Positions 60,954-62,390 of a stretch of DNA of 64,000 bases are shown one piece after another; within the stretch, counting starts at the first letter, position 1; each line of letters starts with the position of its first letter. A model generated the notes under the pieces. The model saw only the letters and a program-made list of their open reading frames with translations, ran no database searches and was not told the origin of the DNA. This DNA is from an uncultured bacterium (GTDB lineage Bacteria > Hydrothermota > UBA3072), in contig CAZKVT010000004.1 of the NCBI GenBank assembly GCA_964556365.1, forward strand, positions 13,842 through 77,841, written 5' to 3'. The translations under genes and the position numbers were made by a program.

Positions 60954-61979
60954 TCAGCCATCTTCGGCTGATTGCCTCCCCCCGTACCATTCGATTGTTT
61001 TTTTAAGTCCTTCTCTAAAGTCTGTTTTTGCCTGAAAGTTAAATTTTTCTTTCGCCCTGCTTGTATCGAGCATTCTGCGAGGCTGCCCATCGGGCTTCGT
61101 AGCATCCCATTTTATTTCGCCTTCAAAACCCGTAAGTTCCGCGATTAAGTTTACAAGGTCTTTTATTTTTATTTCGAATCCTGCTCCAAGGTTAACGGGG
61201 TCAGACTCGTTATAGAACTCCGTTGCGAGTAATATTCCTTCCGCCGCGTCCTCGACATATAAAAATTCTCTACTGGGTTCTCCCGTTCCCCAGATTGTTA
61301 TATGGTTTTCCCCTTTGTTCTTCGCGTCCACGCATTTTTTTATCAATGCGGGAATAACATGAGATGATTTCGGATTGAAATTATCTCCCGGTCCGTACAA
61401 GTTTACAGGCAGAAGATATACACCGTTAAAATTGTACTGCTGTCTGTAGGATTGCAATTGTACGAGAAGCATCTTTTTCGCCAGTCCGTAAGGGGCATTG
61501 GTTTCTTCCGGATAGCCTTTCCATAAATCTTCTTCTTTGAAAGGAACAGGTGTAAATTTTGGATAAGCGCATATTGTTCCCAGGCACACAAATTTTTCCA
61601 ATTCTTTTTGTCTCGCGTATTCTATAAGCTGGATTCCCATAATAGCATTATCATAGAAAAATTTCCCCGGATTTTCCCTGTTAGCTCCGATGCCTCCTAC
61701 TACCGCGGCAAGATGTATTACAATATCGGGTTTTTGTTCCTCATACATCTTTAAGATACTTTCCCTGTCACGAAGGTCGTATTCAGGCAAATCCGCAACC
61801 ATTATATTCTTGCATCCCCGTTCTTTTAGTTTCTCCACCAGATGCTTACCTAAGAAGCCGCGTCCCCCAGTGACTGTCACTTTCCTCTCCGACCAAAAAG
61901 AAGAATCAATTTTAAATTGATTCTCCCTTCCAGGATTTGGGATTTGGGATTTGGGATTTGGGAAATTGGAGCTATTCAT
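60954..61979 (-). CDS. fcl: GDP-L-fucose synthase (GDP-4-keto-6-deoxy-D-mannose 3,5-epimerase/4-reductase)
   Basis: [16 protein letters not shown] Rossmann N-terminus and overall Fcl/GMER similarity. The ATG at 61979 has a GGGAGG RBS but adds a ~30-aa extension translated through a (GGGATTT)4 repeat; the true start is uncertain. Confidence 0.8.
61933..61963. repeat. Perfect heptamer tandem repeat (GGGATTT)x4, just inside the annotated 5' end of fcl
   Basis: ggatttgggatttgggatttgggatttggga. Confidence 0.9.
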
Positions 61980-62340
61980 TGGAGCCTCCCTTTTTTAAAG
62001 AATTTATTAATGCATTCAACATTTTACCTACTTTATTATAACTTTTTATGATTTCATTGTAAACAGAATCTTCTATATAGCCAAGGTCTCGTGTTAAAAT
62101 CAAATGATATTTGGTTTCTGCGATTGAGCCTCTTGCAGTGTAAAGAAATTGTAAATATTCTTTAGTTGTTTGTCTTGCCTGTCCTTCTGCAATATTGGCA
62201 GGAGCTGATGCAGCTGAACGGCACAGCTGACTAGTTAAACGGTAGAGTTCTTCTCTTGGAAAACCATTAGTTATCTTGTAAATTTTAATTACTAATTTGT
62301 GTGCTTCTTGCCAAACTTTAAGTTCTTCAAAGCTATTCAT
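61972..62340 (-). CDS. Four-helix-bundle protein (TIGR02436 / 23S rRNA intervening-sequence protein family)
   Basis: 122 aa; [21 protein letters not shown] ... [27 protein letters not shown] ... [17 protein letters not shown] is the canonical pattern; inserted between gmd and fcl. Confidence 0.75.
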
Positions 62341-62361
62341 TTTGTCTCTCTAAATTTATAA

Positions 62362-62390
62362 CTAAATCCTAAATCCAAAATCCTAAATCC
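62362..62390. repeat. Heptamer array (TAAATCC-type), inverted relative to 61933-61963
   Basis: ctaaatcctaaatccaaaatcctaaatcc is the reverse complement of ggatttaggattttggatttaggatttag. Confidence 0.85.

Follow-up and report, generated by a model that had tools for sequence, protein, structure and literature searches.

A four-helix-bundle gene between inverted heptamer arrays at a gmd-fcl junction: a probable insertion cassette in an uncultured bacterium

The four-helix-bundle (4HB) family PF05635, which includes the S23p proteins of 23S rRNA intervening sequences (IVSs), is functionally uncharacterised in the literature, and S23p itself is a toroidal homopentamer. The IVS of Coxiella burnetii is 428 nt long, has a 28-bp terminal stem, contains a sense S23p open reading frame (ORF) and is excised by RNase III (PMC4990558). 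Tandem heptamer arrays have been described with no associated gene, namely the TAACTGA repeats of Beggiatoaceae (PMC4679880) as well as GGGAATC of Xanthomonas, with ~70–75 inverted pairs, and GGGGAYT of Nostoc (PMC4692102). Here, we analyze a 64,000-nt stretch of contig CAZKVT010000004.1 from an uncultured Hydrothermota bacterium (hereafter, the window), in which a 4HB gene enclosed by inverted heptamer arrays stands between gmd and fcl, all three genes being on the minus strand. The segment 61899–62400 very probably belongs to a family of small insertion cassettes that is widespread and apparently undescribed. A search for publications linking 4HB or S23p genes to heptamer arrays found none, most subscription journals lying outside its coverage.

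Occupied and empty gmd-fcl junctions

The first-pass annotation of the window had regarded gmd and fcl as normally adjacent and the 4HB gene as part of an inserted cassette. A scan of metagenome contigs with the Fcl body recovered 80 relatives, the closest of which are 86–92% identical to the window in gmd and 83–91% in Fcl and present four junction states. In the empty state, the gmd stop overlaps the fcl ATG (...AAG TAATG AAT TTC TGG... in locus L100 and ...TTATGA ATT TTT GG... in L102) and the Fcl N-terminus is MNFWEEK, which bears out the native adjacency of the two genes. Type A, the kind found in the window, is also present in L093, L094 and L001–L011. Type B (L092, L095, L096) has a 4HB protein ~40% identical to that of type A, with (GTCACWR)n upstream and (GTGACxA)n downstream, and type C (L097, L099, L101) has another one, again at ~40% identity, with inverted 8-mer arrays TTGTCAAA... 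/ ...TTAACTATTCAACCAT (units TTGTCAAA / ATAGTTAA). Three 4HB types, ~40% identical to one another, thus occupy the same junction, each with its own inverted 7- or 8-nt arrays.

In addition, 4HB genes whose products are 70–77% identical to the window's are found at other junctions with the same GGATTTAG arrays, between a GT4 glycosyltransferase gene and the Wzy gene in L172 and L180–181 and after a carbamoyltransferase gene in L183. These type-A-like cassettes have the 5′ array GGTTAGGGGTTAGGATTTAGGATTTAG, the 3′ array CTAAATCCCAACCCCTAAATCCTAAATCC and a similar spacer. Judged from these loci, arrays, spacer and ORF travel as one unit. The empty sites, the rival types B and C at the junction and the same arrays at other junctions all support the insertion proposed earlier. 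The segment 61899–62400 is very probably a cassette insertion of the 4HB/array family, and the comparisons show that the cassette moves on evolutionary timescales.

Since orthologues down to 80% 4HB identity have the window-type insertion, its arrival in the window's lineage is not recent. The cassette itself may have been exchanged later. The window and L002 differ at 5 positions in 62418–61889 (0.9%), while the adjacent 3′ half of gmd is ~20% and fcl ~15% diverged, and identity to L094 also falls sharply at ~61890, which points to a recent cassette transfer between diverged backgrounds. Elsewhere in the comparison with L002 (62950–63500 and 61551–61650), blocks of 100% identity alternate with blocks of 72–90%, as would be expected from frequent recombination or a chimeric assembly.

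The coordinates of all features are collected in Table 1. The gmd stop codon, TAG (62403–62401), directly abuts the cassette. Read on the plus strand, the arrays are (GGATTTG)x4.4, perfect, at 61933–61963 and (CTAAATC)x4.3 at 62362–62391; as inverted-repeat arms (61931–61959 and 62364–62392), they are 29 nt long, 90% complementary and 404 nt apart. The GGATTTR dimer pattern occurs 7 times in the window versus 0.28 expected. Every element listed in the first-pass annotation was found at the coordinates given there, and the arrangement is far beyond chance. The A/T palindrome at the right end is partly conserved, with three pairs lost in L005, and type-A cassettes elsewhere are without it. Rfam gave no matches in 60800–63600, and the promoter and terminator scans gave counts at chance level.

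Table 1. Features of the gmd-4HB-fcl locus and a related solo array (positions in the window).
Feature	Coordinates or length	Strand	Basis or remark
gmd (GDP-mannose 4,6-dehydratase), upstream host gene	63450..62401	-	TIGR01472, 585 bits vs cutoff 415
Linker between gmd stop and 5′ array	9 nt	-	
Whole insertion cassette, ~502 nt, all sequence missing from the empty gmd-fcl junction of relatives	61899..62400	-	Comparison with L100 and L102
5′ array/arm, sense (GGATTTR)x4.3 with TAG triplets	62362..62392	-	Conserved among orthologues and type-A cassettes of other junctions
Spacer, 21 nt, weak ribosome-binding region (gttataaatttagagagacaaa) upstream of 4HB start	62341..62361	-	Similar spacer in L172 and L183
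4HB gene, 122 aa	61972..62340	-	TIGR02436, 134 bits
Cassette-encoded fcl leader, 27 codons, through the stop-free 3′ array	61899..61979	-	ATG 61979–61977 overlaps the 4HB stop (ATGAATAG)
3′ array/arm, sense (AAATCCC)x4.4, perfect, reverse complement of 5′ array	61931..61963	-	
A/T-rich 16-bp palindrome followed by T run, right end of cassette, within leader	61897..61929	-	
Native fcl body, GDP-L-fucose synthase-like SDR (short-chain dehydrogenase/reductase), from Phe-Trp onward	60954..61898	-	dN/dS 0.03–0.07
11-nt direct repeat, copy 1, AATGAATAGCT, at 4HB start	62331..62341	.	
11-nt direct repeat, copy 2, at 4HB stop / fcl start	61970..61980	.	
Solo AAATCCN array (ctaaatcccgacccccaaatccgaaatcctaaatc), intergenic, oriented like the 3′ arm	31586..31620	+	Resembles type-A 3′ arm, closely that of L005

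The best match of the fcl ORF (61979..60954) is NF047922, GDP-L-fucose synthase; its score of 297 bits does not reach the equivalog cutoff of 500. The match to the profile begins at residue 31 of the ORF, and the Rossmann motif is first seen at residue 38. Because NF047922 is the best match and adjacency to gmd is conserved in dozens of relatives, GDP-L-fucose synthase is the probable function of this ORF.

The gene between gmd and fcl is indeed of the TIGR02436 type: its product matches this family over residues 9–116 with 134 bits (cutoff 24) and NF008911 with 137 bits (cutoff 137), and PF05635 and PF22296 (bAvd) match all 4HB homologues. Among the structures of the PDB, it matches the solved four-helix-bundle pentamers 2GSC (XCC0516; E = 2.8e-21) and 2RLD (E = 3.3e-5). 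The nearest named homologues are from metagenome-assembled genomes of Zixibacteria and WOR-3, and the nearest one in a reference genome (L012, Aquificota, 59% identity) is flanked by the arrays GGATTAAGGATTAGGGG / CCCCTAATCCTTAATCC. A collection of 50,697 phage records contained one weak match. The ratio of nonsynonymous to synonymous divergence (dN/dS) among type-A orthologues is 0.05–0.13, and the 4HB gene is kept by purifying selection. The protein scores 34.8 bits against the Avd equivalog NF033474, whose cutoff is 80. There is also no reverse transcriptase (RT) gene or template repeat/variable repeat (TR/VR) pair adjacent to it, the neighbours being gmd, fcl, AbiEi and DUF4143 ATPase genes; a window-wide RT scan was not made.

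A 10-bp direct repeat at the 4HB start and behind its stop had also been reported and read as the footprint of the insertion. The repeat is exact and extends to 11 nt (AGCTATTCATT), but it brackets the ORF only; it lies inside the arms, hence inside the cassette, and decays to ~7 nt in orthologues. Other 4HB loci do not share it, the window's 11 nt being the longest of 81 loci, in which 4–5 nt is typical. Outside the arms, no target-site duplication was found, and repeats there reach at most 8 nt in 50 loci. The direct repeat was thus rejected as a target-site duplication, as it lies inside the arms, is absent at other loci and decays in orthologues. Since part of it (ATGAAT) is the native fcl start and L005 keeps ATGAATAGC at the gmd stop, the repeat probably reflects the local history of the junction in the window lineage. 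Partial duplications of cassette ends are found in L097, L172 and L180.

Inverted arrays at 4HB loci of other genomes

The distribution of the arrays was assessed on 80 diverse 4HB loci from Aquificota, Patescibacteria, Chloroflexota, Planctomycetota, Bacteroidota, Acidobacteriota, Proteobacteria, Cyanobacteriota and others, each ORF being scored for an ungapped inverted repeat between its two 150-nt flanks, upstream and downstream. A score of at least 12 was obtained for 49 of 76 4HB loci versus 5 of 161 control ORFs of the same loci (medians of 14 and 8; Mann-Whitney p = 1e-21). The arrays noticed in the window are a hallmark of 4HB loci generally. The arms are tandem arrays of ~3–6 units with a period of 7 nt in 41 of 50 loci and 8 nt in 7 of 50, and the unit is locus-specific (TAGGGGC, TCAGCNA, GCGAATG, GGTAAAGT, TAGATAAG and others). 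The 5′ array typically begins a few nucleotides past the stop of the upstream gene, and the 3′ array begins at or overlaps the 4HB stop. According to a crude ORF criterion, a same-strand ORF lies upstream in 72 of 80 loci and downstream in 70 of 80. The host contexts, as read from sequence, include sugar-nucleotide genes and housekeeping operons (apparent nuoD, carB, ribosomal protein L2 and ATP synthase epsilon genes).

The same design is found on plasmids of cyanobacteria, with CAGGAGT / GACTCCT arrays at NPUN_RS35280 on pNPUN02 of Nostoc punctiforme PCC 73102 and GGGTGTA / TACACCC arrays on a plasmid of Calothrix NIES-22. At ANA_RS23230 on pANA02 of Anabaena sp. 90, the cassette stands between cas6 and cas4, with ~40 GGTGACA-type units upstream and CTGTCAC downstream. 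In this locus (L185, 1130–1910), the 5′ array extends over ~350 nt, and cas6 and cas4 belong to a type I-D CRISPR-Cas operon. Such an arrangement may explain the presence of PF05635 in catalogues of cas-associated genes.

Furthermore, copies of the arrays with no gene were found. The 14-mer array words of a cassette recur elsewhere in its own locus 15 times more often than the words of other loci; at no more than one mismatch, 14 recurrences were observed, the permutation mean being 0.9 and the maximum 6 in 5000 (counts at up to two mismatches were too noisy). Two ORF-less hairpins, each composed of an array, a ~25-nt loop and an inverted array, are found in L089 together with a solo array, and all three share the unit of the cassette nearby. 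The cassette of L090 is inserted in an Eco57I-type N6 methyltransferase gene (1800–4800), which it interrupts just before motif I (DPAAGSGHFL); this gene also contains two in-frame array hairpins without an ORF. The downstream part of this methyltransferase matches PF07669 with 75.7 bits and the upstream part has no Pfam match; it may be a split or inactivated enzyme. In the window, the solo array of Table 1 is followed by an array like the type-C 3′ arm (31626–31650), and arrays like the type-B and type-C 3′ arms are found at 57040–57105.

As a separate observation, the Wzy N-terminus (MTEDSGLKTH) in L180/L181 (~1925–1960) is encoded by a heptamer array (GAGGACT CAGGACT GAAGACT) starting ATGAC, which looks like the right end of a former cassette.

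Translation signals and competing explanations

The first-pass annotation had proposed that fcl gains an N-terminal extension of ~30 aa translated through the array. The leader is open, with a length of 27 codons, and replaces two native codons relative to the MNFWEE start at empty sites. All six type-A variants have an ATG overlapping the 4HB stop, from which an open frame of exactly 81 nt, containing four units, leads to the native Phe-Trp; L005, L011 and L094 have no other canonical in-frame start ahead of the Rossmann motif. As fcl is under purifying selection (dN/dS 0.03–0.07), it must be translated, and use of the leader is therefore strongly implied. We consider that the leader probably serves to translate Fcl.

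Read-through of the 3′ array is also seen in other cassettes. Type B provides fcl with another leader, MTSDERQVTKRE-FW (MTSD(K/E)R in L092 and L095), and in L098 the same MTSD(K/E)R leader is found on a different, FAD-type gene (KFVIIGAGISG...). Further cases are L016 (aminotransferase gene) and the second cassette of L095 (rfbB-like gene). In type C and most other loci, the downstream start is placed just past the 3′ array. Altogether, the 3′ arms are open for read-through in 7 of 45 loci, and the window's stop-free 3′ array is among this minority. Sense-strand stop triplets are enriched in 3′ arms (97 vs. 46±5 in shuffles) and in 5′ arms (99 vs. 77±6), and 12 of 50 3′ arms have stops in all three frames versus 0.8 expected. 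The arms are also polar: with one exception each, TCAG belongs to 5′ arms (12 cases) and CTGA to 3′ arms (11 cases). It can be added that the type-B 4HB ORF is without a canonical start (L092, 2060–2100; L095, 1355–1385; L098, ~700–725): a stop marks the opening of its frame, and ATA, behind GGAG or GGGGG, is the earliest codon plausible for initiation.

Taken together, the locus is likely best explained by a cassette of the 4HB/array family inserted in the gmd-fcl operon. From 5′ to 3′, such a cassette would consist of a 7-nt (sometimes 8-nt) tandem array, a short spacer with a ribosome-binding site, the 4HB/S23p gene and the reverse-complement array. Being co-directional with the operon, it would presumably rely on operon transcription. 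Translation of gmd would terminate at the left edge of the cassette, fcl would restart by termination-reinitiation coupling from the ATG overlapping the 4HB stop, and ribosomes would then cross the stop-free 3′ array and rejoin native Fcl at Phe-Trp. The insertion would be tolerated because the cassette restores the translation signals that it disrupts. The arrays would be terminal inverted repeats and the 4HB protein the sole product, kept by selection. It is proposed that this protein acts on the arrays, because S23p is a pentameric toroid, its homologue Avd binds nucleic acid and the array unit tracks the 4HB subtype. Binding of the 4HB protein to its own arrays is a tentative possibility. 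More speculatively, and with some doubt, the pentamer could be the trans-acting factor of a transposase-free mobile system that recognises the cognate heptamer unit and propagates or maintains both ORF-bearing cassettes and ORF-less hairpins or solo arrays. Homology of the 4HB protein to Avd would allow for an RNA or reverse-transcription intermediate.

Several points weigh against the insertion of such a cassette or against parts of this mechanism. The cassette encodes no transposase, recombinase or RT, and 27 of 76 4HB loci are without clear inverted arms. Heptamer and octamer arrays are common throughout the window without any 4HB gene. The block of low divergence relative to L002 concerns one pair, and the metagenome contig of L002 is a mosaic and may in part be chimeric. 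Divergence of the cassette below that of its flanks is strong for the window versus L002 and L094, modest in type B and not seen in type C; lower divergence of the cassette was rejected as a general rule, failing for type C and being weak for type B. Regarding translation, the window and L002 have an in-frame GTG at 61880–61878, in the window with GGAG upstream, because of which a leaderless Fcl is possible in the window strain. If the arm stem were cleaved, the fcl ATG would be separated from the fcl body, in conflict with use of the leader. Finally, the arm mismatches on the sense strand (28 G.U, 32 A.C and 68 other) have no RNA-type bias. They were counted by class on the ungapped arms of 50 loci, a test that replaced earlier sense-versus-antisense duplex energies of the 150-nt flanks, which paired whole flanks and were over-fitted.

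These last counts bear directly on the first competing explanation, an mRNA version of the rRNA IVS, in which the arrays would pair in the transcript and RNase III would excise the 4HB mRNA and separate the gmd and fcl messages. The RNA minimum-free-energy fold does pair the 5′ and 3′ arms around the 4HB ORF, the Coxiella IVS is comparable in size, stem, sense ORF and processing, the cassettes are co-oriented with host transcription, and every cassette type keeps complementary arms despite different units. However, G.U pairs are no more frequent than A.C, which is the neutral expectation and argues against selection for pairing in the sense transcript; the stem is mismatched at every seventh position, with A.C and U.C on the sense strand, and the z-score of the whole-region fold is only −2.2. 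In L005, L011 and L094, cleavage would moreover sever the only fcl start codon. The pair GGGGGTT / AACCCCC of L011 was considered as covariation and rejected: the variant unit is present in both arms of the outgroup cassettes L180 and L183 and is thus more likely ancestral. We regard this explanation as doubtful, and equally so any cutting of the arm stem of this mRNA by RNase III; we lean towards the view that the arms are required for the element to be propagated or homogenised, and not for processing of the mRNA.

Alternatively, the arrays could be binding sites on RNA or DNA, the pentamer binding 4–5 heptamer units in a TRAP-like manner and regulating itself and the downstream gene, with mobility being secondary. 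Consistent with this are the toroidal homopentamer of S23p beside arrays of ~3–6 units, the correspondence between array unit and 4HB subtype, the position of the 3′ array at the start of the downstream gene, purifying selection on the protein and solo arrays with the same unit at other junctions. On the other hand, a protein binding single strands could read only one of the arms, as these are reverse complements, and co-inheritance of the cassette alone would explain the pairing of unit and protein. This regulatory role is unlikely as the primary one.

An origin as a conventional DNA transposon or a derivative resembling a miniature inverted-repeat transposable element (MITE), with arrays as transposase-binding terminal inverted repeats and the direct repeat as a target-site duplication, is quite improbable. 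The terminal inverted repeats, the exact 11-nt repeat, the presence/absence polymorphism and the ORF-less derivatives would fit it, but the behaviour of the direct repeat described above and the lack of a transposase gene do not. Arm sequences also differ wholly between cassette types within one lineage, and a shared transposase is therefore unlikely.

It is still less probable that the array is a phase-variation switch, in which slippage of the perfect heptamers in the leader would shift the frame and turn fucose synthesis on or off. In favour, 4.4 perfect heptamers lie in frame within the only ORF leading into fcl, 7 is not a multiple of 3, and the target is a surface-polysaccharide gene. 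Against this, the leader has exactly 81 nt and four units in 6/6 type-A variants, including strain-level ones, the arrays are degenerate in orthologues, and the same arrays are untranslated on the 5′ side and at most loci (7/45 open). Finally, a coincidental flanking of the 4HB gene by generic intergenic repeats, for which ~25 other 7–9-nt arrays in the window might speak, has a negligible probability given the 49/76 4HB loci across many phyla versus 5/161 controls and the same arrays with related 4HB genes at different junctions.

The other repeats and neighbours of the locus are as follows. The genome has an unusual wealth of such short arrays, and the ~25 just mentioned lie at gene junctions of the window (29963, 45908, 51227–51292, 52811, 54232, 56935, 57040, 58466, 58642, 58688, 60865–60911, etc.). 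A dispersed ~70-nt element around (AGTCCAA)x5, with shared flanks (cacaaagaacacag ... aaagtcaaaa), has three intergenic copies, all on the plus strand (31550–31585, 34483–34514 and 55394–55429); no 4HB cassette with an AGTCCAA unit was found. A 288-aa IS200-like Y1 transposase with a helix-turn-helix (HTH) domain (32370–33236, minus strand; PF01797, 33.8 bits) is bracketed by two perfect 41-nt palindromes, CCTAACTTTACACTTTTGTCC-G-GGACAAAAGTGTAAAGTTAGG (32332–32374 and 33280–33320), an arrangement like that of RAYT genes and REP sequences. The neighbours of the gmd-4HB-fcl trio (57169–60623 and 63471–64000) are defence or selfish genes rather than glycosyltransferase genes, namely an AbiEi antitoxin gene (PF09952) with that of a 279-aa partner and DUF4143/AAA_14 ATPase genes on both sides. 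Upstream of the AbiEi-family gene (59553–60623, minus strand), repeated GTTTCACC / GGTGAAAC motifs at 60620–60760, which form nested palindromes, have an operator-like look.

Comparison with described systems

The TIGR02436/PF05635 family is abundant and of uncharacterised function, and it now has a testable unit with defined ends, empty and occupied alleles, ORF-less derivatives and culturable carriers (Nostoc punctiforme and Anabaena sp. 90). The cassette also suggests how an element may insert where stop and start codons of an operon overlap and yet cause no polar damage, by bringing its own stop signals and donating a start codon and a leader. Where a 4HB gene lies in a cas or polysaccharide operon, it is probably a passenger and not a component of the system. 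For annotation, it should be kept in mind that N-termini downstream of such cassettes are easily mis-called.

The 23S rRNA IVSs of Leptospira and Coxiella resemble the cassette in their protein family, similar size (428 vs. ~500 nt) and sense ORF within the host transcript, in the terminal inverted repeats that enclose the ORF (a 28-bp stem in Coxiella and 29 nt here) and in a patchy distribution with horizontal transfer and ORF-less relatives. They differ in their site, which is an rRNA helix (9, 25 or 45) instead of a protein-gene junction, and no rRNA was found in any of our 186 loci, a probe match in L029 being spurious. Unlike an IVS, the cassette has arms of tandem heptamers with a periodic mismatch and provides the adjoining gene with stop and start signals and a leader that is very probably translated. 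Purifying selection acts on its 4HB gene, in contrast to the decaying ORF of Coxiella.

The intergenic heptamer repeats (short tandemly repeated repetitive sequences (STRR), TAACTGA, GGGAATC and GGGGAYT) share with the arrays the 7-nt tandem units in 2–6 copies, the location at gene junctions upstream of start codons, stops in three frames (the window's stop-free 3′ array excepted), inverted pairs and similar taxa. The papers describing them name no associated gene, whereas here, the arrays bracket a 4HB gene family in inverted orientation. The cassettes offer a possible origin for the heptamer repeats of cyanobacteria, Xanthomonas and Beggiatoaceae and for the S23p ORFs of rRNA IVSs.

Avd of diversity-generating retroelements, reportedly characterised by Alayyoubi in 2013 as a pentameric, nucleic-acid-binding cofactor, has a homologous four-helix-bundle fold, as reflected in the bAvd match and the NF033474 score given above. 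The 4HB protein differs from it in scoring below the Avd cutoff, in being without an adjacent RT or TR/VR and in its operon-junction context. Rickettsia palindromic elements and in-frame MITEs are hairpin repeats that are inserted in coding regions and translated. The ORF-less hairpins in the methyltransferase gene of L090 and the array-encoded Fcl leader are similar to them; the repeat architecture is different, and the Rickettsia elements have no associated protein gene.

Finally, the system of repetitive extragenic palindromic sequences (REP/REPIN) and RAYT, reportedly described by Nunvar in 2010 and by Bertels and Rainey in 2011, likewise combines a single gene flanked by inverted short repeats with gene-less copies dispersed between genes. 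RAYT is an HUH/Y1 transposase with known chemistry, and we know of no catalytic activity of the 4HB protein; REPs are palindromic, whereas the repeats here are tandem heptamers. If the proposed transposase-free system is real, three things that have been known for as long as 35 years would make up one element family with a REPIN-RAYT-like organization: the heptamer repeats (STRR, TAACTGA, GGGAATC), the ORF-bearing IVSs and the 4HB genes dispersed among polysaccharide, cas and housekeeping operons.

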